A DNA stretch of 64,000 nucleotides from Pseudomonadota bacterium (GCA_043827325.1 JBDRPF010000037.1:8887-72886); one strand, 5' to 3'. Shown: positions 1,120 to 32,202, counted from the stretch's first letter. The notes: generated by a model not told the origin, from the sequence alone. Program-made: numbers and translations.

Positions 1120-1134
1120 GCAATTTGCATGCCA
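1120..1134 (-). promoter_or_regulatory. sigma54 -24/-12 promoter (TGGCAT-GCAAA-TTGC on the minus strand)
   Basis: Exact GG-N10-GC geometry. The enhancer palindrome lies 112 bp upstream. Confidence 0.65.
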
Positions 1135-1226
1135 GTTGCGGACACGCGAGAAATTTTAGTAACCATTTGAATATAAAAGAAATGTTGTGAGGTTGGAAAA
1201 TGAGTGACAAAAGCGCTCGAAAATCG

Positions 1227-1254
1227 TGTCTGAAATTTTTACATGGTGTAAAGG
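1227..1254. promoter_or_regulatory. putative bEBP enhancer (UAS) copy 1: TGTCTGAAATTTTTACAtggTGTAAAGG
   Basis: Member of the 7-copy motif TGTC-N6-TTTTACA-N3-TGTAAAA. Confidence 0.6.
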
Positions 1255-1299
1255 TGGGATTTTGTACAGGGCATCGATTGTTTGTTACAAACCCCACAA

Positions 1300-1986
1300 T
1301 TATTGCGTCACATACATTTCCCGGATGTTTTCCCGGTGATCGATCATGTAGCGCATGGTCGCGGCTTTTTTCAGATCCTCTATCAGTTTCGGCAATCGCG
1401 CACGGTCGATTTGTTGCGCCCGCACATAGAGGTTTCGATATCCGGGAGGGGCGCTTTGATAGGAGGCCAGAATGCTGACGAGCTGTCCTCCATAACTGCG
1501 AACGATGTCCGTAATCTGTTTGATAGACCCCGGATGGTCCTTTATGACAAAAGCGAACTGTACGCCCTTTTTGTACACACCGGTCAGGTTGGTCAAGATC
1601 CGGAACAGGTCCGTCTGGGTTATGATCCCCACGACCCGGCCGTTTTCATCCACAACCGGAACAGCGGAAATTTTGTTTTTTATAAGAATTTGCGCGGTCT
1701 CTTCTATGGAAAAATCCGGAGAAACGGTTATGGGATTTCGGGTCATGATACTTTTCACCTTGATTTTGGAAATCAGATAGAAGAGTTCATGAATTTCCAG
1801 CGACGTGGCATCGGAAGCGGACGCTCTTTTCAAATCCCGATCCGTTATAACCCCCACCAGTTTTTTGTTCTTCATTACCGGAAGAATACGAATGTTGTTT
1901 TCCTTGAGAAGCGTAATGGCCTCCTGCATGGAATCCTCTGCTTCAATCGTGATCACCGGCGCACTCATCCAGTTTGAAACAAGCAT
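1300..1986 (-). CDS. CBS-pair + ACT-like domain protein (AcuB-like)
   Basis: 228 aa with two CBS repeats (VITDRDLKRA, GIITQTDLFRI) and a C-terminal ACT-like region. It is a close paralog of 8502..9182. Confidence 0.8.
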   Translation of the reverse strand: MLVSNWMSAPVITIEAEDSMQEAITLLKENNIRILPVMKNKKLVGVITDRDLKRASASDATSLEIHELFYLISKIKVKSIMTRNPITVSPDFSIEETAQILIKNKISAVPVVDENGRVVGIITQTDLFRILTNLTGVYKKGVQFAFVIKDHPGSIKQITDIVRSYGGQLVSILASYQSAPPGYRNLYVRAQQIDRARLPKLIEDLKKAATMRYMIDHRENIREMYVTQ

Positions 1987-2013
1987 GGGAACACCTCATT
2001 TTATTTGGTTTTG

Positions 2014-2038
2014 AAAAAAACCGGGCCTTTGGCCCCGG
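2014..2038 (-). terminator. hairpin + U-tract directly after the usp stop codon (CCGGGGCC-AAA-GGCCCGG-TTTTTTT on the minus strand)
   Basis: GC stem followed by 7 T. It belongs to the repeated TAAAGAATYCGGG hairpin element. Confidence 0.5.
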
Positions 2039-2043
2039 ATTCT

Positions 2044-2517
2044 TTACTCGCGGCTGTGAGGTTCCGACCGTATGCTCAGCAACGGGACCGGGCAGTGGCG
2101 AAACATCTTCTCTGCTGTTGTGCCGAAAAGAATACCCTTCAGGTTGGTGCGGCCCTTCGGTCCCATAACCACGAGATCTGCATCCTCTTCCCGCACTGTC
2201 TTTATGAGTTCTTCAAACGGGATCCCGACTTTGAAAACCTTTTTGAATAAAAGGTATTTGAAGGATGCCTCCTGCATCATCACGTCGATCTGCCCGGATC
2301 GGTCCTCCGTTTGAAGTTCTATAAATTTTTCAACCGAAATCATCGCGCCGTATATCGCAACTCTTTTCACGATGTCCACTTCCTGCTGATTGATGACATT
2401 CGTTATAATCAAATCGGCCTTGAGGCTCTCGGCCAGTTCGGCAGCATACGTTAAAGCCGCTTTTGAATACTCGGAAAAGTCACAGGCAACCATAATTTTA
2501 CTGATTTTTTTCATCAT
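2044..2517 (-). CDS. universal stress protein (UspA family)
   Basis: 157 aa with [12 protein letters not shown] at the N-terminus and a VVMGPKGRT...[19 protein letters not shown]-binding-type C-terminus. Confidence 0.85.
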
Positions 2518-2566
2518 TTATCTCCTCGCGTTGGACATGTTTAATTGAAGGGTATCCGGTGATAAC

Positions 2567-2581
2567 GCAAAAGGTGTGCCA
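2567..2581 (-). promoter_or_regulatory. sigma54 -24/-12 promoter (TGGCAC-ACCTT-TTGC)
   Basis: Perfect consensus, 50 nt upstream of the usp ATG. The UAS lies 116 bp upstream. Confidence 0.75.
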
Positions 2582-2677
2582 CAGGTGGAACAGAGAGAAC
2601 ACAGAGCATAACTGTTCGATACTTTGGGATATCTTCGGGACTCGATAAAATGTCCCTGTCTGGCGGGATAGGGTTCG

Positions 2678-2706
2678 TGTCAGAATTTTTTACAAAATGT
2701 AAAAGG
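2678..2706. promoter_or_regulatory. putative bEBP enhancer (UAS) copy 2: TGTCAGAATTTTTTACAaaaTGTAAAAGG
   Basis: Perfect 7-3-7 palindrome. Its first 17 nt are identical to those of copy 5. Confidence 0.65.
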
Positions 2707-2753
2707 AGATAAAAACGGATTTTTTGCCGGGACAGTTTTTGGGGGGGACCTCA

Positions 2754-4427
2754 TTAATTTACAGTGAAATTTTCGGCGGGCCCGATAAGGATTTCAGGGT
2801 ATTCCTGTCCTGTCCACGCTTCAGATCCTTTTGTTTTGAACAATTTGGGCATTTTTTTCGATTTTCTTTTTACATCAAGGAGTTTTGTGTTTTTTGGAAG
2901 GACTTTCGTATTTTCCAGGTTGATCAGCGGACGCTGTAACATTTTTTCATAAAGATGGATGTAGTGCTGCGCAGTAACCCTGTGATTGAATCGTGAAGCG
3001 CTTTGCTTCATGATCCGGCCGACCTGCCGCTCTCTTTCTTTCGGGGGTGACATGAAAAATCGCATGGCCTCATCTATGGCCCAGGACAGACCGCCGGCAT
3101 CAAAGGTTTTGAACAAAAAGCCGTTGCCTGTATTGTTAGACGCGTCCAGATGGGTGACCGTGTCGTGAATTCCTCCGGTATCGTGAGCGACGGGAAGGGA
3201 TCCATATAACGCCCCGATCATCTGGGGGAGCCCGCAGGGTTCGAAGCTGGAAGGCATCAGCACAAAATCCGAACCGGCGTAGGCAATGCGGGCCAAACGT
3301 TCCTTGAAGCCGCATACGGCGACCCGGTTGGACAGATTATGGAACCGAACAATGTCTTTGAAATGCCGTTGAAACTCCCCGTCCGCCACAAAGACGAACT
3401 GCAAATTATCCTCCCAATAGCGCGAAACCACCTGATAAAGGATTTCGGACAGCAATTGACAGCCCTTTTGAACCGGGTCCAGGCGCGACGGCCAAAAAAA
3501 GACGGGGGCCTGCACATCCTGAATTAAGCCAAGAGTTGTCTGAAGAACGCGCTTGTTGACCTTTTTTCCTAAAACATGGTCGTTTGCGGAATATCTGCAG
3601 GGCAGCGCCTCATCTCCGGACGGATCATAAGAAGGATCGGGGGCATTCAGAATCCCCGCCGCACATCCGGCGGTGTTTTTGTTGGCCAGTTCCCGCCGCA
3701 GGGAGTCTTTTACAAAACCATGCCGGCCGTCGACGACTTCCTGAAGAAAGGTCGGGCTCACCGTATTGACAAAATGAGCGGCAAAAACCCCGCTTGTCAA
3801 AAAATCGACCGGGATGGCGTTTCTGGTGTTTTCATAGGAAGACGGAAAGGTCTCATAAAAAAGCTGCTGCCAGAACCCGGCGCCGTCGATGCCCCGGTCT
3901 TCGATTTCGGAAAGGGTGCTTCTTACCGTATGGATGTTGTGAATGGTAAACAGGCACGGAATACCCAGATGCCGGGCCATGGCCGGAATGAGACCGGTCA
4001 TCCAGTCGTTGCAATGGATGAGGTCGGGTTGAACTTGAGGGACAATGTTGTTGATCACCTCCCGCTGAAAGGCCAGGGCCATTTTGATGTTTTCATGCGC
4101 GTAACCGGAATAGACATTGTTGAGATAAAAAAACACCCGGTCCTGGGCCAGATGAATTCTTTCTTCAGGTACGGTTTTCCGTATCCTCCTCAGTTCCCTT
4201 CTGACTTCCATCGGCAACCGGCCGTTGAATATGGAACGGTAGTGCGGAAGGGCCACGTGGACATCGGCTCCCTTGCGGTAAAGCGAACTGATCAACGCTG
4301 CCGATACATCGGCAAGTCCCCCGGCTTTGGCATTCAGCTCATCGGATCCGTTGCCCATGCCCTCCGGAAGATAGGTGACTTCAGGCGTCACAATCAAAAC
4401 ACGGGGATTGGTCGAAGCGTTGATCAT
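2754..4427 (-). CDS. glgA: glycogen/starch synthase (GT5) with a C-terminal extension of about 60 aa
   Basis: 557 aa with the KAGGLADV (KxGGL) motif, the EPCGLPQM motif and an RVLIVTPE N-terminus. GGAG RBS. Confidence 0.85.
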   Translation of the reverse strand: MINASTNPRVLIVTPEVTYLPEGMGNGSDELNAKAGGLADVSAALISSLYRKGADVHVALPHYRSIFNGRLPMEVRRELRRIRKTVPEERIHLAQDRVFFYLNNVYSGYAHENIKMALAFQREVINNIVPQVQPDLIHCNDWMTGLIPAMARHLGIPCLFTIHNIHTVRSTLSEIEDRGIDGAGFWQQLFYETFPSSYENTRNAIPVDFLTSGVFAAHFVNTVSPTFLQEVVDGRHGFVKDSLRRELANKNTAGCAAGILNAPDPSYDPSGDEALPCRYSANDHVLGKKVNKRVLQTTLGLIQDVQAPVFFWPSRLDPVQKGCQLLSEILYQVVSRYWEDNLQFVFVADGEFQRHFKDIVRFHNLSNRVAVCGFKERLARIAYAGSDFVLMPSSFEPCGLPQMIGALYGSLPVAHDTGGIHDTVTHLDASNNTGNGFLFKTFDAGGLSWAIDEAMRFFMSPPKERERQVGRIMKQSASRFNHRVTAQHYIHLYEKMLQRPLINLENTKVLPKNTKLLDVKRKSKKMPKLFKTKGSEAWTGQEYPEILIGPAENFTVN

Positions 4428-4561: not shown

Positions 4562-4825
4562 TTAAAGATCGAGGTGTTGACTCATTTCAAATTCCCATTC
4601 ATCTTCAAGGTACACGGAAATCAACTCCATGGTACGGTAATCCAAAACATCTTCTTCCCACCCAAGTCTGCTCAGAACCTTTTTCAGGTCGGCCGATCCG
4701 GGATCTCTTTCCGTGGCGACAATGTTGGACACGTCCTTGATCAGCCGATCGATTTCAAGGGAGAACAAGTGTCTGTCACCCAGCCTCGTTGATATCAGGT
4801 CTTTAAGTGTTGACATGGCGAACAT
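4562..4825 (-). CDS. hypothetical small acidic protein
   Basis: 87-aa ORF in line between the CBM48 gene and glgA. No recognisable motif and the start is uncertain (4825 or 4816). Confidence 0.35.
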   Translation of the reverse strand: MFAMSTLKDLISTRLGDRHLFSLEIDRLIKDVSNIVATERDPGSADLKKVLSRLGWEEDVLDYRTMELISVYLEDEWEFEMSQHLDL

Positions 4826-4894: not shown

Positions 4895-5191
4895 CTACAG
4901 ATCGGTCAGGTTAAGGACGCTGTTTCGGGTTCCAAAGCAGTTCGGACAGGCCTGCTCATTCCGGGGATCTTCTCTCCAGTTCCCGTCAATTACAAACTTG
5001 TATTCGTATTGTCCCGGAGAAAGCATCACCGTCTTGCTCCATATGCCGTTTCCATCATTTTTCATGGAGTGGCCTTTGGGGTTCCAGTTGTTAAAGTCCC
5101 CGGTCAGAACGACCTCTCCGGCCATCGCCGCTTCGAGTGAAAATGTCACTTTTCGTTTTTTTGCTGTCTGTTTTGATTTGACCTTTGCCAT
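4895..5191 (-). CDS. stand-alone glycogen-binding module protein (CBM48 / AMPK-beta GBD-like)
   Basis: The VLTGDFNNWNP...YEYKFVIDGNWREDP motif set is present. I moved the start to the ATG at 5191 (MAKVKSK), which has GGAGG upstream. Confidence 0.7.
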   Translation of the reverse strand: MAKVKSKQTAKKRKVTFSLEAAMAGEVVLTGDFNNWNPKGHSMKNDGNGIWSKTVMLSPGQYEYKFVIDGNWREDPRNEQACPNCFGTRNSVLNLTDL

Positions 5192-5336
5192 GTCATGCCT
5201 CCTTAAAAAAATTCCGAATCCACAATTAGAATGTGAGCCATCTTTTTGTTTCCTCATTTTTCGTTTTGGTTTGTCATGGTGGCCCCCGTTTGGTTATGAT
5301 GAAAAGTTGAATCCAACAACATGAGTCTCTGATACT

Positions 5337-5351
5337 GCAAGGCACATGCCA
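5337..5351 (-). promoter_or_regulatory. sigma54 -24/-12 promoter (TGGCAT-GTGCC-TTGC)
   Basis: Correct spacing, 146 nt upstream of the CBM48 start. A degenerate UAS lies 115 bp upstream. Confidence 0.6.
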
Positions 5352-5447
5352 TAATGAAGAAAATTTTTACGTTACTTTAACATACTAAAATCGTAATACA
5401 AAATAACCCCGGGCGCGAAAAAACGTGCAATTCAAACAGCAATTGCC

Positions 5448-5473
5448 GGTCGTTGTTTTTACAAGGTGGAAAA
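5448..5473. promoter_or_regulatory. putative bEBP enhancer (UAS) copy 3, degenerate: GGTCGTTGTTTTTACAaggTGGAAAA
   Basis: The left half-site is perfect, the right half has one mismatch and the flank is diverged. Confidence 0.45.
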
Positions 5474-5486
5474 AAACCGGACGGCC

Positions 5487-6051: not shown

Positions 6052-6081
6052 CTTTAAAATTTGAAACGCTCAGTTTAGGTT

Positions 6082-6759
6082 CTATTCTTTCCAGAGGTCC
6101 ACGTCGATGAGGCCGAGCTTTGCGGCAAAGCGGATCAGTTCCATGTTGCTGTGCAGATCAAGTTTGCGCATGATATTGGCGCGGTGGTTTTCGGCGGTTT
6201 TGGGGCTGATGAAAAGTTTCTCGGCGACCTGTTTTATGGGCAGTCCTTCGGCCAGCAGAACCGTGATCTCCTGCTCCCGGGGGGTCAGGGTGTCGTATTC
6301 GGACCCGGTTGCAACCGCCTCCTTGGCCGGCAATCCAACGAGCTTTTTTACCACCTGCTGGGAAACCGAAGTGTCCATATAATAATTGCCTTTCAGGACA
6401 TGATCCATTCCCTCCAGAAGTTTTTCCGCAGCGGATTCTTTCACCAGGTAGCCGGTTGCGCCCATTTGAAACGACCGAACGATATAGTCTATCTTGGAAT
6501 GCATGCTCACAATCATCACACAGGTCTTGGGAGAAATTGTTAAGATATCGCGGACCAGTTCGATGCCGCTTTTATCCGGGAGGGACACATCCACCAGGGC
6601 CAGGTCCGGTTTGAGGTCCCTGGCCAGTTTAAGGCCGGTTTTTGCGGTGCCGGCTTCTCCGACCACTTCATACTTCGGGCTGCGTCCGATGATTACCTTG
6701 AGGCCTTCCCGAAAAAGCGGGTGGTCGTCAACGATGATGATCTGCTTTCTCTGTGTCAC
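6082..6759 (-). CDS. NarL/FixJ-family response regulator (REC + LuxR-type HTH)
   Basis: 225 aa with IIIVDDHPLFREGL, TPREQEI...LFISPKTAENHRANIM. It is a paralog of 55140..55817 with the identical C-terminus GLIDVDLWKE. Confidence 0.9.
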   Translation of the reverse strand: MTQRKQIIIVDDHPLFREGLKVIIGRSPKYEVVGEAGTAKTGLKLARDLKPDLALVDVSLPDKSGIELVRDILTISPKTCVMIVSMHSKIDYIVRSFQMGATGYLVKESAAEKLLEGMDHVLKGNYYMDTSVSQQVVKKLVGLPAKEAVATGSEYDTLTPREQEITVLLAEGLPIKQVAEKLFISPKTAENHRANIMRKLDLHSNMELIRFAAKLGLIDVDLWKE

Positions 6760-8275
6760 GGTTTTCTTCTTTCGCGGCGAATTTTATCGCTATTTTGGTT
6801 CCTTGCCCGGGGTGGGATTGGACCGTCATTTGCCCTTTGAGCAGGTTCACCCTTTCCTCCATGCTTCGGAGCCCCATCCGTTTTGAACCGTCCAGCGCGC
6901 GCTTTCTCGCCTCCACGTCAAATCCGATTCCGTTGTCTTCTATTCGCAAAATGACGTTGGGCAGGGCACCGAGCAGCCGCACCGCTGCCGTGCCTGCATC
7001 GGCATGTTTTTGAATATTATTGAGGCCTTCCTGGACCAGACGGACAATGTGAATTTTAATATTATCGTCCATATCCAGGTGATCCAAACCGGCGGATTGA
7101 AAGTCAACCCTGATGCCGCTGTTTTTGGAAAACTCTTCGCAGTGCAATTCCAGCGAATGCACGAGCCCGATTTCATCCAGCCCGGGGGGGCGCAAATCAT
7201 AGGCCAGACCCCGAACGGCTGAAATGGTTTGCTCGATAAGCTTGGAATGTTTGGCCGCTTTTTTTCTCAGCTCGGGAGATATGTCATGTTGATCGTCGAA
7301 CAGGGTGTCACAGCCGATTTTCAGTATGGAAAGATTCTGGGCGATGCGATCGTGCAGCTCATAGGAAACCATCTGCCGCTCACGCTCCTGGGCCTGCAAC
7401 AGCATTTGTGACAGGTTCCGGATAAGATCGTCGGCCTGCTTTCGATCGGAAACATCGACAATAAAATTCAGGGAGGCTGGACGGCCTTCCCAGGAGATTA
7501 AGACCCCCTTTTTTTCCAGCCATTTTGTTCCGCCGTCCCGGCTGGTCATTCTGAGAATATAGGAATCAGGGACCGGTTCGCCGTTAAGCCGTTTGAGATG
7601 GTATTCACTTACCATGACGCGATCATCCGGATGGACAAATTCGATAAACGGCCTTGAGGTCAAGTCCGCCTCTGAATAACCGGCGATCCGGGCACCTTCA
7701 GGGTTGACCAGTTTGAGAAATCCGTCCTGGGTCACCAAAATGCCCACGTTGGCATTGTCGACGACCATGCGGTATTTTTTTTCACTCTCCAGCAGACGAT
7801 TTCTTGTTTCCTGGCGTTCGAAAACCAGCCCCAATCTTTCGGCAATGGTGTCGATCAGGGCTCTTTCCTCCTTCTGGAAGGGACCCTCGTCCCCTACAGG
7901 CTTCTCCTCCAGATAACAGACTTCCAAAGCGCCGATCGACTCGCCTTCCGAAACAATGCCGGCGGCCTGCTTCCAGCCGGTTTCTTTGAAATTTATTGTT
8001 TTGAACTCCTGACCTTTGACAGCGATGCGCGCGCAGGCGACTTCAGGATACCGCCATGCGGCACAGATGAGATCGACAGCCCTTTTGGCAACATCATCAA
8101 ATGAAATGCCGGGTTTTTCAATAAGATAAGATATGCCATACAGGCAGTTCAGTTCCTTGACCCGTTCTCGAAGTTCTTGCGCCAGCCTGTTCAACTCCTG
8201 GTCGGTTTGTTTCTGGGAAGGGGAGTTTTTTTTGAGTGCATCGGGTTCCGGCGGTACATGTTCGCTGTTCGTCAT
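6728..8275 (-). CDS. sensor histidine kinase (GAF-like + PAS + HisKA_3 + HATPase)
   Basis: 515 aa with the ELHDRIAQNLS H-box (HisKA_3 type) and DNGIGF, and a PAS region. It overlaps the response-regulator start by 32 nt. Confidence 0.85.
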   Translation of the reverse strand: MTNSEHVPPEPDALKKNSPSQKQTDQELNRLAQELRERVKELNCLYGISYLIEKPGISFDDVAKRAVDLICAAWRYPEVACARIAVKGQEFKTINFKETGWKQAAGIVSEGESIGALEVCYLEEKPVGDEGPFQKEERALIDTIAERLGLVFERQETRNRLLESEKKYRMVVDNANVGILVTQDGFLKLVNPEGARIAGYSEADLTSRPFIEFVHPDDRVMVSEYHLKRLNGEPVPDSYILRMTSRDGGTKWLEKKGVLISWEGRPASLNFIVDVSDRKQADDLIRNLSQMLLQAQERERQMVSYELHDRIAQNLSILKIGCDTLFDDQHDISPELRKKAAKHSKLIEQTISAVRGLAYDLRPPGLDEIGLVHSLELHCEEFSKNSGIRVDFQSAGLDHLDMDDNIKIHIVRLVQEGLNNIQKHADAGTAAVRLLGALPNVILRIEDNGIGFDVEARKRALDGSKRMGLRSMEERVNLLKGQMTVQSHPGQGTKIAIKFAAKEENRDTEKADHHR

Positions 8276-18204: not shown

Positions 18205-18300
18205 CAACAGAAGGAAAAGGGAGAGAGCGAATAACCGACTGATACTTATATAAGTATCGAGTGCCCGACAAACGGTTCTCGCCGGGCGGGGCCGGTGCTG

Positions 18301-18330
18301 TGTCGAGTTTTTTTACAGAATGTAAAAAGG
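18301..18330. promoter_or_regulatory. putative bEBP enhancer (UAS) copy 4: TGTCGAGTTTTTTTACAgaaTGTAAAAAGG
   Basis: Perfect 7-3-7 palindrome. Confidence 0.65.
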
Positions 18331-18711: not shown

Positions 18712-18726
18712 GCAAAAACCAGGCCA
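18712..18726 (-). promoter_or_regulatory. candidate sigma54-type promoter (TGGCCT-GGTTT-TTGC) upstream of the S21-like gene
   Basis: GG-N10-GC spacing is correct but the -24 box is non-consensus. It lies 170 bp from the centre of UAS copy 5. Confidence 0.3.
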
Positions 18727-18876
18727 TGACGGCAATCTGACGGCCATATGATTTCAAAGGCACTTAAGCCCGAATATTTTCAGTGTGGTGGTATATACAT
18801 TCCTTAAAAGAGCCCCCCGACACCCGAGGGACTTAACGCATGAACCGATATATTTTCTATGAATTGATTTCCGACG

Positions 18877-18903
18877 TGTCAGAATTTTTTACAAGGTGTT
18901 AAA
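18877..18903. promoter_or_regulatory. putative bEBP enhancer (UAS) copy 5: TGTCAGAATTTTTTACAaggTGTTAAA
   Basis: One mismatch in the right half-site. Confidence 0.6.
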
Positions 18904-18998
18904 CAGTCCGAAAGGGTTGAAGAAAATTCTCGATCGTAAAGAAAACAAGTCCCCCGAACCGTCCCGATCAATTCCATTTTTGAAGATATCTCGTCATT

Positions 18999-19013
18999 TG
19001 GCACGCCTCTTGC
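18999..19013 (+). promoter_or_regulatory. sigma54 -24/-12 promoter (TGGCAC-GCCTC-TTGC)
   Basis: Perfect consensus, 105 bp downstream of the centre of UAS copy 5. Confidence 0.7.
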
Positions 19014-19151
19014 TGTTAAAATATCAGCTTACGGCATTTACGCCGGCACCGGCAAAGCCAGTAAAACCAAACAAAGACAAATGCGAATTCGGTGAGCGGT
19101 CGGGGATTTTTGCGGCTCAACCGCTCCAGACGCAAACAGGAGGAGGACATT

Positions 19152-19445
19152 ATGGCGGTTAAGGTTATCAGTAAACGGACATTCCAAATGGATGACAAAA
19201 AGAAACTCATCTCGCTGCTTGCGGAATTGCGTTCCCTTTCAAAAGGACAACCCGGCCACATTTCCCGCGAAACATTAAGAAGCCTTGACAATCCGGGAGA
19301 GTACATCGTTATCAGCGAATGGAAAACATCCGAAGACTGGAAAATTTGGTTGAAAAACCAAAAAAGGAGAGAGATCCAGGGAAAGATAGATTCCCTGATC
19401 GGAGAAAAAACCTTTTACGAAATTTTTGAGCCCGAGATCTTTTAA
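19152..19445 (+). CDS. ABM (antibiotic biosynthesis monooxygenase-like) domain protein
   Basis: Start at the ATG at 19152 (MAVKVISK), which has AGGAGG upstream. The EYIVISEWKTSEDWKIWLKN motif is typical of ABM/dimeric alpha-beta barrel proteins. Confidence 0.65.
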   Translation: MAVKVISKRTFQMDDKKKLISLLAELRSLSKGQPGHISRETLRSLDNPGEYIVISEWKTSEDWKIWLKNQKRREIQGKIDSLIGEKTFYEIFEPEIF

Positions 19446-24565: not shown

Positions 24566-26002
24566 TTAAAACGGATCCTTTTTTACGGAAGTCTCGAGTT
24601 TCAGCTGGTATTTTTCGATTTTGGAGTGCAGCGTCGGCCTGGAAAGCCCGAGGAGTTTTGCCGTCTTTGAGCGGTTGCCGCCGGAGAGGTTCAGCGCCTC
24701 GCTGATAACGATGCTGGCAAAGTGATCCATGCATGAATCAAATATATTGCGTCCGGTTCTGGAGGAAAGTTCCCGTCGAATAAACTGCCTGAGTGTCAGA
24801 TCTTTGCTGTCTGCACCGGCATCATCAGCGGGACTTTTTTCCCGGATGGCCTGATCAATGTCTTCGGGGGAAAGCGGGGCGCCGCGGTTGAATATCAGGG
24901 ATTTTTGAATGGTATTGGCAAGTTCACGCACATTGCCGGGCCAGGAGTGACCGGAAAGGAGCCTTTTTGCCTCATCGGTAATCCCGGGGTTGTTCACTCC
25001 CGCCTCATTTGTAAACCGGGTGAGAAAGAATTCCGTCAAAAGGGGTATATCGTCGGCCCTTTCGTTGAGAAGGGGAAGGCGGATGGTCACCACCTTGAGG
25101 CGATAATAGAGGTCTTCGCGGAACCGGCCGTCTGCAATGGCCGTTTCCAGGTCCCGGTTGGTGGCGGCAATAACGCGCACGTCCACGGGGATGTTCTGGC
25201 GCCCCCCCAGCCGCTCAATACTTTTTTCCTGAAGCAGCCGCAGCATTTTGGCCTGAAGACCAAAAGGCATATCTCCGATTTCATCAAGCAAGACGGTTCC
25301 TCCGTGAGCCTGTTCGATCTTTCCCACACGACGATGTGTGGCACCGGTGAAGGCCCCTTTTTCATACCCGAACAGCTCGCTTTCCAGGAGGGTTTCGGGA
25401 ATGGCCACACAGTTGATCACCAGAAAAGGCTTGTCGGCCCGAAAGCTGTGCTGATAAATCGCCCGGGCCACCAGTTCTTTTCCCGTTCCGGAGTCTCCCC
25501 TGATGAGCACGGTAGCGTCGGTGGGAGCGACCCGCCCGATGGCTTTGTAGACCTCCTGCATCGGAGCGCTTCGCCCGATGATGGCTTCTCTGGAAGCCTG
25601 ATCCGGAGAAATATTCATATCCACCGGCGAACGCATGAAACGTCCTGCTTCAAGCGCTTTTTTGACCACATCCAGCATAACCGGGATATCAAACGGCTTG
25701 AGGATGTAATCGAACGCACCCATCTTGGTGGCTTCGATGGCTGTTTCGGTCGTTCCGTAAGCGGTCATCATAATTACCGGGAGTTTGGGTTCCATCCGGT
25801 GAATGGCCTTAAAGGTTTCCAGACCGTTCATTCCCGGCAGGCGCATGTCCAGGATAACCAGATCCGGGTTCTCTTTCTGAATGACTATAAGCCCGGCTTC
25901 CCCGGAGGCGGCGCTTTTCGCGGAATATCCCTCCTCGGTCAGAAGCTTATCGAAGCTTTTTCTGAGCTGATCATCGTCGTCTATAATGAGAACGATACTC
26001 AC
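24566..26002 (-). CDS. NtrC-family sigma54-dependent response regulator (REC + AAA+ + Fis-type HTH)
   Basis: 478 aa with GDSGTGKE Walker A, canonical GAFTGA, WPGNVREL and C-terminal KTAKLLGLSRPTLHSKI. GTG start. Confidence 0.9.
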   Translation of the reverse strand: MSIVLIIDDDDQLRKSFDKLLTEEGYSAKSAASGEAGLIVIQKENPDLVILDMRLPGMNGLETFKAIHRMEPKLPVIMMTAYGTTETAIEATKMGAFDYILKPFDIPVMLDVVKKALEAGRFMRSPVDMNISPDQASREAIIGRSAPMQEVYKAIGRVAPTDATVLIRGDSGTGKELVARAIYQHSFRADKPFLVINCVAIPETLLESELFGYEKGAFTGATHRRVGKIEQAHGGTVLLDEIGDMPFGLQAKMLRLLQEKSIERLGGRQNIPVDVRVIAATNRDLETAIADGRFREDLYYRLKVVTIRLPLLNERADDIPLLTEFFLTRFTNEAGVNNPGITDEAKRLLSGHSWPGNVRELANTIQKSLIFNRGAPLSPEDIDQAIREKSPADDAGADSKDLTLRQFIRRELSSRTGRNIFDSCMDHFASIVISEALNLSGGNRSKTAKLLGLSRPTLHSKIEKYQLKLETSVKKDPF

Positions 26003-26006: not shown

Positions 26007-27548
26007 TTATTCCTCTATCGGAAGCGCAATGATAAACGTCGTTCCCCCGCCTTCCTTTGATTCTACATCCAGTCGGCCGCCGTGTTCTTCAATAATGCGC
26101 AGGGCGATGCTCAGGCCGAGGCCGGTGCCTTCATCTTTGTTGGTAAAAAACGGTTCGAAAACCTTTTCTTTTATGGATTCCGGGATCCCGGGGCCGGTGT
26201 CGATCAATCGAATTACGGCTGTTTTCTTATTGGATGACAGGTAATTTTCTTCTTCGTTGATCACGATCGATCCGCCCAGGCCCATGGCTTCGCATGCGTT
26301 TTCTATGATGTTGACAAAGACCTCCTTTAGCTGCTCGGGATCGATCTGGATTTCCGGAAGCGGTTGTTTCCGGATGATTTTTACGTTTACATCGTAGGAT
26401 TTGAGGCGGTGTTCGAGCAGTTGAATGGTCATGTCAACCACCGCGGACGGACTGATCTTCTGAGTTTTGAGCCGGGGAGGCCGAGAAAACTCCAGAAAAT
26501 TCTGAACAATCGTGTCGGTGTGGCGAATTTCTTCGGAGATGACGTCAAAGTCCTCTTTCTGGTAATCCGTGAGTTCGAGGGACCGTCCCAGGGAAAAAAG
26601 GCGCATCTTCACCGATGTGAGCGGGTTGCGAATACTGTGGGCCATTCCCGCGGCCAGCTTGCCGATCAGAACCATCTTTTCAGCTTGCAGAAGGTGTTCG
26701 CGACTGCGTTCAAGTTCGATATGGGTCTGGCCGGCATCCTGGATCAGGCCGTGCACACCTCGACTGAGTGTCGTGATTAAATCGTCCGATTTCATCCGGT
26801 CATCGCCCGGGCCCATCTCTTTTACCAGCCCGAGCAGCGGGTTCAAAATCTGGGTGATGAGAACGATTATTAAAAGAATACCGAGAAACAGAACGACCGT
26901 AATGGCGCCCATTGATACAATTCTCAGCTTTTTGGCAAGAGCAAGGCTTTTCGTTCGTGCATCCGCGATGCGTTTTGTGTGAATGGCTTTGAATTTTTCA
27001 CAGAGTTCCAAAATTATAAAAAATCGGCTGCGCACCTCTTTGTGAAGTTTGAGGCCGGTCTCCCGTTGGCCTGCTTTATAGTGGTCGATAACACGGTCTT
27101 TGCCGGTGATATAAACCCGGTATTCCTGATCGATCCGGTCGATGGCTTCTTTTTGTTCATCGTTTTCGACCAGGGAACGGATCTCATGGAGCCGCTCTAT
27201 AAAAACCTGGCGGTACCCTCCCAGCTGCCGCAGCCACTCGGGATCGTTGTCTAAAAAATAGTAGGTCACAAACCCTTTTTGATTGACCAGTGCGTGTTCC
27301 AGGGCATCGGCTGCTTGAAAGGCTTCCAGGTTACGGTCAATAATCGAGGACAGCAACGCATCACTCTGGTAGGTGTGCCATATGGTGATAAAACCGCCCA
27401 TGGTCGTGATGAAAACCAGGGCGGCCACAACCAGATAAACGCGATTGCGGAGGCTAAACCGGTACCACATTTCGAAGATCCCGTTTTTGTTCAGATGGCC
27501 CAGCGTTATGCCGGGGGCGCTCTTCTGTGCAGAAGTCATCGGCATCAT
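26007..27548 (-). CDS. membrane sensor histidine kinase (helical periplasmic sensor + HisKA + HATPase)
   Basis: MAHSIRNPL H-box and DTGPGI / GTGLGL. The start is uncertain (ATG at 27548 or 27545, or TTG at 27572). Confidence 0.8.
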   Translation of the reverse strand: MMPMTSAQKSAPGITLGHLNKNGIFEMWYRFSLRNRVYLVVAALVFITTMGGFITIWHTYQSDALLSSIIDRNLEAFQAADALEHALVNQKGFVTYYFLDNDPEWLRQLGGYRQVFIERLHEIRSLVENDEQKEAIDRIDQEYRVYITGKDRVIDHYKAGQRETGLKLHKEVRSRFFIILELCEKFKAIHTKRIADARTKSLALAKKLRIVSMGAITVVLFLGILLIIVLITQILNPLLGLVKEMGPGDDRMKSDDLITTLSRGVHGLIQDAGQTHIELERSREHLLQAEKMVLIGKLAAGMAHSIRNPLTSVKMRLFSLGRSLELTDYQKEDFDVISEEIRHTDTIVQNFLEFSRPPRLKTQKISPSAVVDMTIQLLEHRLKSYDVNVKIIRKQPLPEIQIDPEQLKEVFVNIIENACEAMGLGGSIVINEEENYLSSNKKTAVIRLIDTGPGIPESIKEKVFEPFFTNKDEGTGLGLSIALRIIEEHGGRLDVESKEGGGTTFIIALPIEE

Positions 27549-27618
27549 AATGTCTCGGTGAAAGCGACGCAATGTTTTTTTGTTTTTTGGGTGGTGTTCA
27601 TTGTAGCAACATTTCCCT

Positions 27619-29088
27619 TTAGATCGTCACCGGCATTCCCATCAACGGCCAGAGAACCCCGGCGGCAAAGGCGACCACGAGCATCAGCAGAATGCTGGCT
27701 ATCACACCGTACATGAAAAACTCTCCCGGCGTGAACATCTTCGAGTCGTAGGCGATGGCATTGGGCGCCGCGCCGACCAGCAGCATAAAGGGCATACCGG
27801 CGGTCGCCAGCGATGCGAACAGGATGACGTCAGGGGCCACCCCGAGATACGGCGCGATCACCAGGGCCACGGGAAGGGAGATGGCGATGGCCGCCACGTT
27901 CATGATGAAATTGGTCATCACCATCACGAAAAAGGCGATGCTCAACACGAAAACAAACCAGTTTGCTTCCTTGAACAGCACCAGCCAGTTTACCGCGAGC
28001 CATTTGGCGGCGCCGGTGTCCCACAGACAGAAACCGATGCTCATGGCCCCGCCGAACAGCAGGATGATGTTCCAGGGGATTTCTTCGAGGTCATCCAGTT
28101 TAAGTATGCCGGTGAGGAAAAAAAGGATCGTGGAAATCAGGATGACGGCGGTCTTGTCAATCGGCTTTAAAATCGGAAAAAACGACCGTAGGGACAGGAC
28201 CAGGATACAGCAGAAGACAATAACGGCCGCCAATATTTCCTTGCGGGTGATACGGCCCATTTCAGCGTGAAGGGCCGTGGCTTTTTCTCTCAGGCCGGGG
28301 ATGACCTTCTTTTCGGGCTTTAAAAAGATCATAAAAAACCCCCACAGCAGAAACGTCATCAGCCACCCCACCGGGAACATGTAATAGGTGAGTTGAAAGA
28401 ACGAGATGTTTCTGCCGACGATATCGTTGAAGAACCCGAGGGCCACGGCGCCCCGAGCCGCCCCCAGAAGGGTGATAATGCTGCCGGCCCCGGCCACGTA
28501 CGCCATGCCCATAAAAAGCGCCTTTCCGAATTTGGTCGGTTTGTTTCCTTCGCCGTACAGACTGTAAACCGCCAGCAGCAGCGGATAAATGGTGGCCGCA
28601 ACGGCGGTGTGGGCCATAACGTGCGTCAGGGCTACGGTGACCACAAAACATCCCAGCAAAATCATGCTGGTTTTTTCGCCCACGATCACCAGCATCTTAT
28701 AGGCAAGGCGTTTGGTCAGGCCGGTTTTGGTGAAGACCAGCCCGATGACGACGGACGCAAAGATGAACATCACCGACGGGTCCATAAAATCATTAAAGGC
28801 GGTTTTGGCCGGGCGAATCAGGTAAAGGGCCTGTAGAACGCCGATGGTCAGGCTGGTCACGCCGATGGGCACCACCTCGAACACCCACCACGTTCCGGCC
28901 AGAAGAAAAATAGCCAGCGCCCCCTTTCCCTCCCGGGTCAGGGAAAAAGGTTTCCCCAGGGGATCCACGGCATCAGGCCACGGGGATGCGTAGTAAACCA
29001 CGATAAAAAGTATAATGCCTGTGAAGAGAAACAGGGATCGTTTCCAGTTGAAATCGTTTTTAACAGAGGGGTTGGAAGTGCTCGACAT
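27619..29088 (-). CDS. DASS/SLC13-type (ArsB/NhaD superfamily) anion:cation symporter
   Basis: 489-aa polytopic protein with duplicated hairpin-like SxGAxxxG/AAPNA motifs (GAAPNAIAY). AAGGAG RBS. Confidence 0.7.
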   Translation of the reverse strand: MSSTSNPSVKNDFNWKRSLFLFTGIILFIVVYYASPWPDAVDPLGKPFSLTREGKGALAIFLLAGTWWVFEVVPIGVTSLTIGVLQALYLIRPAKTAFNDFMDPSVMFIFASVVIGLVFTKTGLTKRLAYKMLVIVGEKTSMILLGCFVVTVALTHVMAHTAVAATIYPLLLAVYSLYGEGNKPTKFGKALFMGMAYVAGAGSIITLLGAARGAVALGFFNDIVGRNISFFQLTYYMFPVGWLMTFLLWGFFMIFLKPEKKVIPGLREKATALHAEMGRITRKEILAAVIVFCCILVLSLRSFFPILKPIDKTAVILISTILFFLTGILKLDDLEEIPWNIILLFGGAMSIGFCLWDTGAAKWLAVNWLVLFKEANWFVFVLSIAFFVMVMTNFIMNVAAIAISLPVALVIAPYLGVAPDVILFASLATAGMPFMLLVGAAPNAIAYDSKMFTPGEFFMYGVIASILLMLVVAFAAGVLWPLMGMPVTI

Positions 29089-29171
29089 TTATGATCTCCT
29101 TGGTTGTCATTCCGGTCTGTTTCTGATGTTTGTCCGATCAGACGGATCCATGGGTATTTATCGGGTATTTA

Positions 29172-29732
29172 TCAAAGACTGCAGGATTTGACGGCCGCTG
29201 CAATCTCGGAAAACACATCGGTTTTTCTCAAGATGCCAACAATTTCTTTTTCTTTTCCATGCGTTACCAGCAGCGATTGATGACGCCCCATGATCAACTG
29301 GTGGATGGCTTCGTCCAGGGTTGCATTTTCATCAACACATTCGCCTTCGGTTGGGGTATACATAAATGTTTTGACTTTCAGTTGAGCCGCTTTGCGGCAG
29401 ATATCGCTCAACGGTTTGTTCCACAGCTTGTATTCCGTGAGCAGAGACCTCATTTTCAGGGGGCTGTAGCCGAATCTGCTGAGCGATATTTGGTCTTCGA
29501 GTTCGTCGTATTTTGGCTCCAGGGCCCGGATAACGTCGAACTGGCTAACCTTTCCCACGATCCGATGGTTTTTGTCATACACAAGAACCGCTCTCTGCGG
29601 ATAACGGGTCTTGTCCCACTCCTGTTGCGCTTTTTCCAGGGCCATGACGGTTTCATATAAAGTGGCCTCTTCCGGGACCGTTGCGTATTCGGAGATGGGA
29701 ACCATCAAATTTTTTACAATGTTTGATTTCAT
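29172..29732 (-). CDS. CBS-domain protein
   Basis: Start trimmed to the ATG at 29732 (MKSNIVKNLMVP), which has AAGGAGG upstream. CBS repeats are present. Confidence 0.75.
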   Translation of the reverse strand: MKSNIVKNLMVPISEYATVPEEATLYETVMALEKAQQEWDKTRYPQRAVLVYDKNHRIVGKVSQFDVIRALEPKYDELEDQISLSRFGYSPLKMRSLLTEYKLWNKPLSDICRKAAQLKVKTFMYTPTEGECVDENATLDEAIHQLIMGRHQSLLVTHGKEKEIVGILRKTDVFSEIAAAVKSCSL

Positions 29733-29813
29733 CAGAATCCTCCTTAATGTGAACAGCATCCCGCAGCCCCGCTGGAGCGGGACAGCAGATGGCTTTCTCT
29801 TTTGATTCTATCC

Positions 29814-29840
29814 AAAAAAACCGGGTGCGTTGCACCCGGT
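29814..29840 (-). terminator. Rho-independent terminator (CCGGGTGC-aac-GCACCCGG-TTTTTTT on the minus strand)
   Basis: Perfect 8-bp GC stem plus T7, downstream of response regulator 29965..30393. Confidence 0.8.
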
Positions 29841-29964
29841 TGCAAGTTCACCGTAAAAGCACTGACGTGCTTTGACTCAGGCCTTAAAAAAAGCCGGTTT
29901 CGGGACACCGGCCTCATCTTTCAGGAACTTGAATACACGAGCAGCTTTTCCGAGCGCGGACAGG

Positions 29965-30393
29965 TCACCATCCCCGTCTCTTGACGATATTCTCGATCTC
30001 CGCCTTGCGAATACGCGCTTCATGCTCTGCCTTGAGGTCGTAGGATCTGCTTATTTTCGCAACCAGATCCTCGGTATCGGTCGGCTTCATAAGATAATCA
30101 AAGGCACCTAATTTCATGCCTTCGATGGCTGTTTCAACCGTGGCGTTGCCGGTGAGCATGATGACGTGGACGAGCGGTTTCAGGGTTTTAAGTTCCCTCA
30201 ACGTCTCGACACCGTCTTTTCCCGGCATCAATACATCCAGGACAACGACATCGAAGTCCTGTGTGCGGACAAGGTTTATGGCGTCATCACCGGTGAGAGC
30301 GGTCGTGACATCAAACGCCCTCATCTGCAGACGCTGAGACAGGGATTCGACAAAGTCTTTCTCGTCGTCTACCAACAACACTCTTATTTTCAT
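29965..30393 (-). CDS. single-domain response regulator (CheY-like)
   Basis: 142 aa, RVLLVDDEKDF...DVLMPGKDG...KP. Confidence 0.9.
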   Translation of the reverse strand: MKIRVLLVDDEKDFVESLSQRLQMRAFDVTTALTGDDAINLVRTQDFDVVVLDVLMPGKDGVETLRELKTLKPLVHVIMLTGNATVETAIEGMKLGAFDYLMKPTDTEDLVAKISRSYDLKAEHEARIRKAEIENIVKRRGW

Positions 30394-30497
30394 GAATCAC
30401 ACTCCCTTATAAAGCCGTTTCGCTGTTCTATCGGCGCAAAGATGCCTTCTTTGCTGAAAAAATTCTCTGTTCAACGCGGGTTGAAGGAAAATTTGGA

Positions 30498-30947
30498 TCA
30501 GTCTTCTTCGTTGTCCATAATTTTTTTTGCCGATTTATGGTCACCGCCCTCGGCCATGGATGCTGCGACCATGCTTTTTTCGACGCTTTTGAATGCGCGC
30601 TTTATGTGTTGAATCAGCGTTTCCATTGAAGTCGGCTTTTCGAGATACTCAAACGCACCCAACCGGCGCGCCTCTTTTTCATCCTTTTCCGAACCGTGGC
30701 CGGTCAGCATGATCACCTGGACCTTGGGGTAGGCCTTTTTGACCCGTCGAAGCACTTCCATGCCGTCAATGCCGGGCATTTTGAGATCCAGAACCATAAC
30801 GTCCGGGACCTCCTCATCAACGAGCCGCAACGCCTCTTCCCCGTTCAGGGCGACGCCGGAATCAAGATCGCGCATCTTTATCCGTTCAGACAGGCTTTGT
30901 ACAAAATCTTCTTCATCATCGACCAGTAACACTTTAATTTCTTTCAT
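30498..30947 (-). CDS. single-domain response regulator with an acidic C-terminal tail (tandem duplicate A)
   Basis: 149 aa, highly similar (roughly 80-85% identity by eye) to 31325..31786. Confidence 0.9.
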   Translation of the reverse strand: MKEIKVLLVDDEEDFVQSLSERIKMRDLDSGVALNGEEALRLVDEEVPDVMVLDLKMPGIDGMEVLRRVKKAYPKVQVIMLTGHGSEKDEKEARRLGAFEYLEKPTSMETLIQHIKRAFKSVEKSMVAASMAEGGDHKSAKKIMDNEED

Positions 30948-31069
30948 TTTTATCCCCTTTGTTTAATCGTTTCCGTAAGGAGTTTTTTATTTTCGAAAGA
31001 TGGAACGTGGTTTTAACTGCATCCCGATTAAGTTTTTTATCTGTAGAAATTTTTTTATCCACTGTTAGA

Positions 31070-31084
31070 GCAAAGGATGTGCCA
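31070..31084 (-). promoter_or_regulatory. sigma54 -24/-12 promoter (TGGCAC-ATCCT-TTGC)
   Basis: Perfect consensus, 123 nt upstream of ATG 30947. The UAS lies 115 bp upstream. Confidence 0.7.
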
Positions 31085-31179
31085 AAAGGGAAAAGGCGCT
31101 CAAAATGTTTTAACAAACTGAAAAAATGGAACAAATTAAAACAGGGGGCTGGCGATTAAAAAACAGCCGGGGGTTGACC

Positions 31180-31208
31180 TGTCAGATATTTTTACAGGTT
31201 GTAAAAGG
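31180..31208. promoter_or_regulatory. putative bEBP enhancer (UAS) copy 6: TGTCAGATATTTTTACAggtTGTAAAAGG
   Basis: Perfect 7-3-7 palindrome. Confidence 0.65.
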
Positions 31209-31324
31209 AGATTTTAAAGACAATTCAAAAAGATTTTGTCGAACAAAGCGAGGATTGGGATTTCGCTGCTGTTATAAAATCGTTTTACCAACCCCGCCGC
31301 TTGATACGGTTTTCAATCTCCGCG

Positions 31325-31786
31325 TCAGTCTTTTTCATTATCCTCTTCTTCGTCCAAAATTTCTTTTGCCGATTTGTAATCACCGTTTTCTGCAAGTGCC
31401 GCCGCCGCCATGCTCTTTTGAAAGTAGCTAAACGCGCTTTTTATGTGCTTGGTAAGGATGTCAATGGAGGTCGGTTTTTCGAGATATTCAAAGGCGCCCA
31501 ACCGGCGCGCCTCTGTTTCATCTTTTTCCGAACCGTGGCCCGTCAGCATGATCACCTGAACCTTGGGGTACGCTTTTTTGACCCGCCGAAGCACTTCCAT
31601 GCCGTCAATTCCCGGCATTTTAAGATCCAGGACCATAACGTCCGGCACCTCCTCATCAACGAGCCGCAATGCCTCTTCTCCGTCCAGGGCGACGCTGGAA
31701 TCAAGCTCGCGCATCTTTATCCGTTCAGACAGGCTTTGTACAAAATCTTCTTCATCATCCACTAAAAGCACCTTGATTTTTTTCAT
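31325..31786 (-). CDS. single-domain response regulator with an acidic C-terminal tail (tandem duplicate B)
   Basis: Start at the ATG at 31786 (MKKIKVLLVDDEEDF). It is a paralog of 30498..30947. Confidence 0.85.
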   Translation of the reverse strand: MKKIKVLLVDDEEDFVQSLSERIKMRELDSSVALDGEEALRLVDEEVPDVMVLDLKMPGIDGMEVLRRVKKAYPKVQVIMLTGHGSEKDETEARRLGAFEYLEKPTSIDILTKHIKSAFSYFQKSMAAAALAENGDYKSAKEILDEEEDNEKD

Positions 31787-31948
31787 TTTAAATCCCTTTC
31801 TCACGTGGTTTTTTCGGGCGTCATTGTTTTTGAAAGCCAGAACGTTGTTTTAAAGCGAACACCGAAGCCGTAATGGGAAAATTCACTTCATTAATATAAT
31901 ATGTCAGCAGTGATGAAGTAAAGATTTTTCTCCTTATTTCATGCGAAC

Positions 31949-32067
31949 TTATTTAATTGCAGACGGCAGGGCCAGCAGAACGTTTGGAGCCGATTTCTTC
32001 ATTTGGGCAAAACCGCCCGGAGCGACAGTGATTTTTTGTAATATCGACCCGTTTTCGGAAACAGATA
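31949..32067 (-). pseudogene. remnant of the 3' end of a degenerate-kinase gene (homolog of 44521..45189)
   Basis: The minus-strand translation ..SVSENGSILQKITVAPGGFAQMKKSAPNVLLALPSAIK* matches ISVSENWSILQEIAASLGGFAKMEESAPGILLTLPSAIK*. Nucleotide identity is roughly 80% over about 118 nt with 44521..44638. There is no upstream coding continuation. Confidence 0.75.
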
Positions 32068-32069
32068 AA

Positions 32070-32097
32070 TTTTACACCCTGTAAAAAATTCCCGACG
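32070..32097. promoter_or_regulatory. putative bEBP enhancer (UAS) copy 7 (reverse complement: CGTCGGGAATTTTTTACAgggTGTAAAA)
   Basis: Perfect 7-3-7 palindrome that directly abuts the pseudogene remnant. Confidence 0.6.
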
Positions 32098-32187
32098 CCT
32101 GATTGGTTGTTCTTTTAAATTTCCCGCTCTCGTCAAAATAAAATACTAATAAATCAAACGGTTAGACAGCCTGCCCCGATTTTTATT

Positions 32188-32202
32188 GGGCATGCTTTTT
32201 GC
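32188..32202 (+). promoter_or_regulatory. sigma54 -24/-12 promoter (GGGCAT-GCTTT-TTGC)
   Basis: GG-N10-GC spacing is correct. It lies 111 bp from the centre of UAS copy 7 and 139 nt upstream of the kinase ATG. Confidence 0.6.

Follow-up and report, generated by a model that had tools for sequence, protein, structure and literature searches.

Which regulator would act on seven promoters that all carry the same palindrome? The question is raised by a 64,000-nt stretch of groundwater-metagenome DNA labelled Pseudomonadota bacterium (GCA_043827325.1, JBDRPF010000037.1:8887-72886), called here the window and searched over its full 64 kb. An earlier reading made from the sequence alone (the sequence-only reading) had noticed seven copies of a TTTTACA-N3-TGTAAAA palindrome, each upstream of a -24/-12 promoter element, and had proposed a sigma-54 regulon controlled by a bacterial enhancer-binding protein (bEBP). 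Whether one of the two bEBPs encoded in the window is the activator had been left open. We find that the palindrome is the core of a longer, oriented element that recurs in Thermodesulfobacteriota together with a block resembling an integration host factor (IHF) site and a sigma-54-type promoter. Linkage in other genomes suggests that the bEBP encoded at 24566-26002 is most probably its activator.

Seven elements and seven promoters in the window

With up to 2 mismatches, TTTTACA-N3-TGTAAAA has 8 matches in the window, where 0.30 are expected; none of 100 shuffled sequences reaches 8. Seven of them are the copies noticed earlier, each 105-116 bp upstream of a TGGCAY-N5-TTGC element. The eighth, at 31109-31125 with 2 mismatches, coincides in part with the IHF-like site of promoter 31070 and was rejected as a chance match. 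The perfect promoter element also has 8 matches (0.28 expected), 6 of which are paired with a palindrome at 105.5-116.5 bp. The seventh paired promoter, at 32188, carries one mismatch (GGGCAT). All seven paired promoters are oriented with their genes and lie 50-150 bp upstream of a start codon. Coordinates and sequences of the seven pairs are as the sequence-only reading gave them, its distances agree with ours within 0.5 bp, and the gene families that we assigned by Pfam confirm its gene calls.

Once the sites are oriented by their promoters, the element appears longer and asymmetric: (C/T)TTTTACA-N3-TGTAAAAA-N5-C-N-GACA. It contains three TGT/ACA half-sites, arranged as ACA-N3-TGT-N11-ACA. 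The palindrome first described therefore holds as a core, while the full element has a fixed orientation, and one copy (upstream activating sequence 5, UAS 5, the copy at 18887) is inverted relative to the promoter of the ABM gene. Searched with up to 3 mismatches, the extended pattern matches only the seven sites (10 matches over both strands; 0.13 expected), and a position weight matrix (PWM) scan of the 64 kb finds no further site scoring at least 23. Around the element, no second conserved block is present from position -15 to +45. It is one composite site and not a pair of tandem dimer sites as at NtrC, NmpR and GlrR promoters.

Two copies deserve comment. UAS 3 is close to symmetric: GTC/GAC arms flank it on either side (GGTCGttgTTTTTACAaggTGGAAAAAaaccGGACG), giving four half-sites instead of three, which explains why it scores about equally in both orientations. 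The inverted arrangement of UAS 5 is rare, being found in 2 of 66 cases. Read in the usual orientation, UAS 5 points to a promoter-like site with one mismatch at 18712-18726 (-), at a distance of 170.5 bp.

This promoter-like site lies about 120 bp upstream of a 73-residue basic open reading frame (ORF; 18372-18593, -; MPKAMIETYNDYPSVLVRNNDVERALLELRNK...) that has a strong Shine-Dalgarno sequence, GGAGGTGA. The ORF may be an eighth, unannotated member of the regulon. Its identification as ribosomal protein bS21 was considered and rejected: the sole PDB match is 7ooc_T at E=0.56, Pfam and NCBIfam give no match, and no homologs occur in the fetched loci.

Between the UAS and the promoter, we searched for IHF-like sites, defined as matches to WATCAANNNNTTR with at most 2 mismatches. 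Such predicted sites are found at 5 of the 7 window promoters, one of them perfect, about 39 bp upstream of the -24 box. The coordinates of all these features are collected in Table 1.

Table 1. Predicted regulatory sites and gene groups of the window. PWM, score with the position weight matrix; distance, from the palindrome centre to the GG of the -24 box; HK, histidine kinase; RR, response regulator; REC, receiver domain.
Feature	Position	Strand	Details
UAS 1	1225..1254	-	CCTTTACAccaTGTAAAAAtttCaGACAcg; serves promoter 1120; PWM 35.7; distance 112.5 bp
UAS 2	2676..2705	-	serves promoter 2567-2581; PWM 41.6; distance 116.5 bp
UAS 3	5445..5485	-	weakest copy; serves promoter 5337-5351; PWM 23.7 (-), 25.1 (+); distance 115.5 bp
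UAS 4	18299..18328	-	serves promoter 18190-18204; PWM 34.6; distance 116.5 bp
UAS 5	18875..18904	-	inverted relative to ABM promoter 18999-19013 (+); PWM 37.5; distance 105.5 bp
UAS 6	31178..31207	-	serves promoter 31070-31084; PWM 41.1; distance 115.5 bp
UAS 7	32069..32098	+	serves promoter 32188-32202; PWM 27.7; distance 111.5 bp
Sigma-54 promoter (predicted)	1120..1134	-	TGGCATGCAAATTGC; IHF-like site ATTCAAATGGTTA at 1160-1172
Sigma-54 promoter (predicted)	2567-2581	-	IHF-like site 2609-2621
Sigma-54 promoter (predicted)	5337-5351	-	partner of UAS 3
Sigma-54 promoter (predicted)	18190-18204	-	IHF-like site 18232-18244
Sigma-54 promoter (predicted)	18999-19013	+	partner of UAS 5; before ABM gene
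Sigma-54 promoter (predicted)	31070-31084	-	IHF-like site 31111-31123
Sigma-54 promoter (predicted)	32188-32202	+	GGGCATGCTTTTTGC; perfect IHF consensus AATCAAACGGTTA at 32152-32164
Operon of promoter 1120		-	cytidylate-kinase-like 247-999, then partial cNMP-binding ORF at left window end
Operon of promoter 2567		-	Usp 2044-2517, CBS 1300-1986
Operon of promoter 5337		-	CBM48 4895-5257, hypothetical 4562-4825, GlgA 2754-4427
Operon of promoter 18190		-	dCache HK 16441-18141, RR, RR, REC-HK 14272-15504, REC-REC, GlgP 10793-13342, kinase-like, CBS
Gene of promoter 18999	19092-19445	+	ABM
Operon of promoter 31070		-	RR 30498-30947, RR 29965-30393
Operon of promoter 32188		+	dCache HK 32341-34041, RR, RR
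Two tandem intrinsic-terminator hairpins	29893-29912 and 29819-29841 (29819..29912)	-	after RR pair
Genes between regulon operons		-	CBS 29172-29759, DASS transporter 27619-29088, kinase 26007-27572, bEBP 24566-26002 (Pfam)
Partner sensor histidine kinase	26007..27572	-	4HB_MCP/CHASE3-like periplasmic module, HisKA, HATPase; adjoins bEBP in orthologous loci
Candidate activator, NtrC-family response regulator	24566..26002	-	Pfam Response_reg, Sigma54_activat, AAA_lid_14, HTH_8
Genes beyond bEBP 24566-26002			TauE, ADP-forming acetyl-CoA synthetase, PPK2

Conservation of the element in Thermodesulfobacteriota

One genome per species, for 185,579 species, was scanned with the pattern TTTACA-N3-TGTAAAA-N6-GACA, from which the promoter was excluded. 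At least 120 loci matched (loci are labelled L001 and so on), and they fall into two classes. About 75 loci among the matches listed, to which the counts by phylum below also refer, belong to Thermodesulfobacteriota and hold 76 sites. Carriers include Desulfobacterales, Syntrophobacterales, Desulfomonile, Desulfobaccales, a metagenome-assembled genome (MAG) of Desulfohalobiaceae, NaphS2, Desulfosudis and Desulfatitalea. On the GACA side of the element, TGGCAY-N5-TTGC with at most one mismatch is found at 100-122 bp for 66 of the 76 sites, in line with the clustering that had been expected of a genuine enhancer. A promoter lies at 90-160 bp for 7 further sites, and 3 sites have none.

In other phyla, a promoter accompanies 1 of 46 sites (L109). 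The other 45 are mostly a coding string of rpoC, TTTACARGGTGTAAAAATYRAYGACA, which encodes ..YRLQGVKINDKH.. (for example L016, L026 and L038); these matches served as a negative control. The matches outside Thermodesulfobacteriota that are not in rpoC look like chance. As for L109, labelled an Anaerolineales MAG, its element and promoter (TTTACACTTTGTAAAAAAAGTGGACA ... AGGCATGGTTATTGC) are identical to those of L081, a Thermodesulfobacteriota MAG. Because the site duplicates that of a Thermodesulfobacteriota contig, the L109 contig is probably mis-binned.

Distances between element and promoter peak sharply at 115.5-117.5 bp (41 of 79 sites), and a smaller peak is shifted by one helical turn to shorter values. 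In 64 cases the GACA arm is the one nearer the promoter, against 2 in which it is the farther one. As seen in sequence, natural sites are fixed in both orientation and spacing, two features that a classical enhancer can vary and still work. The reverse search, starting from promoters, gave the same picture: among the 69 perfect sigma-54 promoters of all fetched loci, 66 are preceded within 260 bp by an element that scores at least 20. Eight of these elements had escaped the search pattern, which makes them independent of it. These results, with a promoter at about 116 bp in unrelated genomes, support the reading of the palindromes as enhancers of a sigma-54 regulon.

When the loci are aligned by their promoters, the IHF-like motif starts at -40 to -38 from TGG in 35 of 79 sites, compared with about one match per position elsewhere. 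No further conserved block lies between -260 and the promoter. The shared architecture consists of a conserved dyad UAS centred near -140 (mode 116 bp upstream of the promoter element, within the range of about 80-200 bp that characterises a bEBP site), an IHF-like site near -60 and a -24/-12 element. These three blocks precede orthologous and non-orthologous genes in about 75 genomes of several orders.

Genes downstream of the element

In other genomes, the gene that comes first after the element was classified by Pfam (n=67). Receivers (Response_reg) are the most frequent, with 16 cases, followed by Usp (10), CBS (5), DASS transporters (4), dCache kinases (4), TauE (3) and PstS-like binding proteins (2). 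CstA, malic enzyme, acetyl-CoA synthetase and a Na/Pi cotransporter are each seen once. Two operon chains recur: CBS, RR, DASS, dCache kinase, RR; and dCache kinase followed by one or two RRs. GlgP, CBM48 and the cytidylate-kinase-like gene recur in closer relatives. In the window, the predicted regulon comprises seven promoters, possibly eight. The operon of promoter 18190 possibly extends through a PAS-HK/LuxR-RR pair down to 6082.

A link of this regulon to sulfate and energy status is plausible. The DASS protein of the window is 80-91% identical to proteins of many Desulfobacterales and Desulfatiglans assemblies, one of which is named a sodium/sulphate symporter. A DsrC-like gene (58230-58547, -) adjoins that of a large FAD/FeS oxidoreductase (58775-60745, -) with an MvhD-like (FlpD) end. 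DsrC marks the organism as a sulfate or sulfite reducer, and the two genes together are typical of dissimilatory sulfur metabolism and fit its assignment to Desulfobacterales.

A candidate activator and its kinase

The bEBP encoded at 24566-26002 is composed of a receiver domain with D52, an AAA+ domain with GAFTGA at residues 216-221 and a Fis-type helix-turn-helix (HTH). It scores below every named NCBIfam equivalog cut-off: 480.5 against 558.6 for NtrC (TIGR01818), 456.5 against 714 for AtoC, 385.6 against 760 for ZraR and 365.6 against 763 for GlrR. Proteins of many Desulfobacterales assemblies are 75-86% identical to it, and its nearest named relative is found in Desulfonema magnum.

The gene and the element are linked in other genomes. 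Among the roughly 75 motif-picked 8-kb loci, 8 hold an ortholog of this bEBP (67-74% identity) plus the same kinase, and a ninth, L062, holds a 55% relative. The element usually starts about 30-120 bp past the stop codon of the ortholog, often within 60 bp. Conversely, 9 of 12 loci anchored on the ortholog contain the element (L001-L003, L204-L206 and L124-L126), whereas in 75 loci of paralogous bEBPs (38-50% identity, about 0.75 Mb) no site reaches a score of 18. Nine orthologs of 69-100% identity all share one recognition helix (..LGLSRPTLHSKIEKY..), which fits the conserved site. We propose that bEBP 24566-26002, phosphorylated by the kinase at 26007-27572, is most probably the activator of the element, a choice that the sequence-only reading had not made between the two bEBPs of the window.

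In three loci the element also stands before the operon that includes the regulator gene. In Desulfonema magnum, element and promoter are placed directly before DASS, REC-HK, RR and bEBP. In L001 they stand before RR-RR-CBS-DASS-HK-bEBP, with no terminator intervening, and in L205 before a same-strand string ending in DASS-HK-bEBP. Autoregulation in the window itself, with promoter 31070 driving RR-RR-CBS-DASS-HK-bEBP, was considered and is countered by the two strong tandem terminators that follow the RR pair. Since these hairpins stand there, promoter 31070 probably stops short of the regulator, and the short operon 30947-29965 proposed earlier holds. They end only about 60 bp before the CBS-DASS-kinase-bEBP genes, for which no promoter is evident in the window. 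Autoregulation was retained as an idea for L001, L002 (Desulfonema magnum) and L205 only.

In L002 (Desulfonema magnum CP061800), a leader of about 305 nt (6080-6386) separates the predicted sigma-54 promoter from the DASS start codon.

The second bEBP of the window (37474-39984, -) consists of a dCache sensor and an AAA+ domain with GAFTEA instead of GAFTGA, and has no Pfam HTH match. Its gene is divergent from a perfect sigma-54 promoter at 40189-40203 (+), which precedes genes for Usp, a hypothetical protein and TauE. Another promoter, at 47412-47426 (-), precedes a dCache kinase. The PWM scan finds no element near either promoter, as had been stated, nor anywhere in 33-64 kb. The two promoters are neighbours of the second bEBP and not, as first written, of both. 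They probably answer to other activators, such as this second bEBP. The pairing of the latter with a PPDK_N-like gene (34872-37484) recurs beside the 4HB kinase and regulator in L207 (511-5897).

Proposed mechanism and alternatives

Taking these observations together, we consider it likely that the element is the UAS of sigma-54 promoters, bound by one phosphorylated NtrC-family regulator with the assistance of IHF. The response regulator, once phosphorylated, would bind as an oligomer to the 7-N3-7 dyad and to a third half-site, GACA, that follows at a distance of one helical turn. This composite site is centred about 140 bp upstream of where transcription is predicted to start. An IHF-type bend centred near -60 would then bring the AAA+ ring of the activator to the sigma-54 RNA polymerase at -24/-12, and ATP hydrolysis would open the promoter. 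Targets would be dCache-kinase/receiver modules, Usp and CBS nucleotide-sensing proteins and enzymes of glycogen synthesis and breakdown, joined in relatives by DASS-type (putative sulfate) transporters. As this regulon is rich in signalling modules and sensors, the regulator would head a signalling cascade linked to energy or electron-acceptor status. The anatomy of the sites, their conservation and the linkage of regulator and element are seen directly in the sequences; binding, the action of IHF, sigma-54 dependence and the signal we infer.

Several points weigh against this scheme. At two promoters of the window, 5337 and 18999, the IHF-like site is weak. No element is present in the sequence at hand for three ortholog loci (L207, L127 and L128), and the operon of the regulator in the window has none directly upstream, being separated from promoter 31070 by the two terminators. 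Desulfobacteria encode 50-70 bEBPs, which leaves room for another activator (PMC12316311). A single element with three half-sites is unlike the tandem dimer sites of NtrC. Finally, the physiological signal is a guess.

The element could indeed be a sigma-54 enhancer for another bEBP whose gene lies elsewhere in the genome; the 24566-type regulator and its kinase would in that case be members or neighbours of the regulon. The dozens of bEBPs in Desulfobacteria, the window operon and the three ortholog loci without element would agree with this, as would the other bEBP genes present in a few motif-picked loci (among them L014, L032 and L088). These others number only 3-4 among the matches listed, compared with 8 (9 with L062) from the one orthologous group. 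Moreover, because the element sits past the stop codon of the regulator gene and reads away from it, this gene is not simply a target. With the paralog loci devoid of the element and a recognition helix as invariant as the element itself, we regard a different bEBP as unlikely.

Alternatively, the palindrome might be the operator of a regulator without AAA+ domain (a repressor, an anti-activator or a nucleoid protein), with the true bEBP site elsewhere. AT-rich dyads are common as operators, and strict orientation and spacing are unusual for a classical enhancer. Sigma-54 promoters nevertheless need a bEBP, a site at -140 with IHF at -60 is the standard geometry of an activator, and between -260 and the promoter nothing else is conserved but the IHF-like block. 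No recurrent linkage to any non-bEBP DNA-binding gene was found either, and an operator of this kind seems highly improbable. That the seven copies, similar units of about 150 bp within 32 kb, are a dispersed repeat (a duplicated promoter cassette or miniature mobile element) without common regulation can practically be dismissed, since only the three functional blocks are conserved, the same architecture stands before orthologous and non-orthologous genes in several orders, and the element-to-promoter spacers (about 90 bp) are mutually unrelated in the window, with a mean identity of 0.29 against 0.27 after shuffling.

Other features of the window

Two paralogous pairs of a PAS/HisKA_3 kinase and a LuxR-type regulator, at 6082-8275 (-) and 53922-55817 (+), show a DosS/DosR-like architecture. 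Near-promoter matches, TGGCCTATGATTTGC, occur at 7192 and 54652 inside the two kinase genes; they are shared coding sequence and not promoters. The window contains no rpoN gene. In the metatranscriptome X19, related contigs are found at 90-95% likeness, as fragments of 160-290 nt without direction, and the RNA run of the source study contains no related contigs. For NaphS2 and Desulfosudis oleivorans, a search for RNA runs found none.

Possible significance

Desulfobacteraceae and their relatives account for much of the carbon mineralisation in marine sediments. To our knowledge, the regulation of their sulfate uptake and of their response to energy limitation is largely unknown. We tentatively propose, as an idea that may well prove wrong, that one two-component system, the 4HB/CHASE3 kinase and the NtrC-type regulator, is the master switch by which sulfate-reducing Thermodesulfobacteriota respond, in a conserved way, to a shortage of energy or electron acceptor. 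It would act by way of a stereospecific UAS-IHF-promoter module of fixed orientation and switch on genes for the DASS (sulfate) transporter, for Cache-kinase modules, for Usp and CBS energy sensors and for glycogen turnover. If true, the system would be the counterpart, in anaerobes, of the NmpR (oxygen) and DosR (hypoxia) regulons and would supply the cis-regulatory code still missing for a published sulfate-uptake cluster.

The analysis supplies a precise, searchable cis-element, a predicted promoter class and a named candidate regulator with its kinase. The regulon can be read from any metagenome-assembled genome, and the hypothesis is testable in cultured carriers, for instance Desulfonema magnum, Desulfosarcina, Desulfosudis oleivorans and NaphS2. 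The strict spacing and orientation across orders also offer a natural case for asking why some sigma-54 enhancers are stereospecific.

Comparison with known systems

The kind of gene switch described here is well known, and the present regulon adds a new case to it; our literature search found no paper pairing the element motif with sigma-54. NifA/nifH- and NtrC-type sigma-54 promoters are composed of a UAS, an IHF site and a -24/-12 element. The present module resembles them in its dyad UAS with TGT/ACA cores about 100-150 bp upstream, the IHF-like bend site in between and the GG-N10-GC promoter, and the candidate regulator shares the GAFTGA AAA+ domain and the Fis-type HTH of their activators. 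The 7-N3-7 layout is that of the NtrC site, TGCACCA-N3-TGGTGCA. In contrast, the sequence of the element is different and AT-rich, and in place of tandem dimer sites there is one composite in which TGT-N11-ACA overlaps ACA-N3-TGT. Its spacing and orientation are fixed across orders, the regulated functions differ, and the regulator falls below the NtrC and AtoC cut-offs.

Within the same phylum, the bEBP regulons of D. vulgaris Hildenborough (Kazakov et al. 2015, PMC4641369) have groups of TGT/ACA half-sites 9, 11 or 12 bp apart. That regulome includes, for DVU2956, a motif of three half-sites, and its targets include TSUP/TauE transporters as well as regulatory genes. The logic of the method is the same, with bEBP gene, UAS and sigma-54 promoter co-localised. 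Most D. vulgaris bEBP regulons comprise 1-4 operons and none includes glycogen, Usp or CBS genes (PMC4641369), whereas here at least 7 operons are found in one window and such genes are present; the comparison covers motifs and gene content. More generally, a 2025 survey found that sigma-54 promoters of Desulfobacteria are enriched before kinases and CheY-like receivers, with up to 69 bEBPs (PMC12316311).

A 30.5-kb cluster of Desulfosarcina variabilis and 26 other sulfate reducers encodes DASS-type sulfate transporters, Cache kinases, receivers, Usp and CBS proteins (Sci Adv 2025, PMC11887813). Its authors propose sulfate sensing by the Cache kinases and sensing of sulfate/energy status, and describe no sigma-54 promoter, enhancer or NtrC-type regulator for the cluster. 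By composition (DASS, Cache kinases, receivers, Usp, CBS; fig. S21 of PMC11887813), the window matches this DASS/two-component/CBS cluster of Desulfobacteraceae.

By analogy, the closest characterised system appears to be NmpRSTU of Myxococcus xanthus (McAllister et al. 2025, PMC11841059), likened here by its parts. There, an NtrC-like response regulator ends a relay of several components, among them a REC-HisKA-CA hybrid kinase and a single-domain receiver. The NmpR regulon is autoregulated, has a CBS protein and a Usp among its members, and is induced when oxygen, the terminal electron acceptor, runs short (PMC11841059). The NmpR site, GCGCA-N5-TGCGC in two copies 14-15 bp apart, differs from our element. 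The sensor of that system is a haem protoglobin kinase (PMC11841059), and no globin-type kinase is seen among the Pfam matches of the window proteins. The parts of such a relay are nonetheless present in the window: the bEBP, the REC-HK of the promoter 18190 operon and many single RRs. In Desulfonema magnum, where the order is DASS, REC-HK, RR, bEBP, the REC-HK and the RR stand directly beside the regulator, as in an NmpRSTU-like arrangement.

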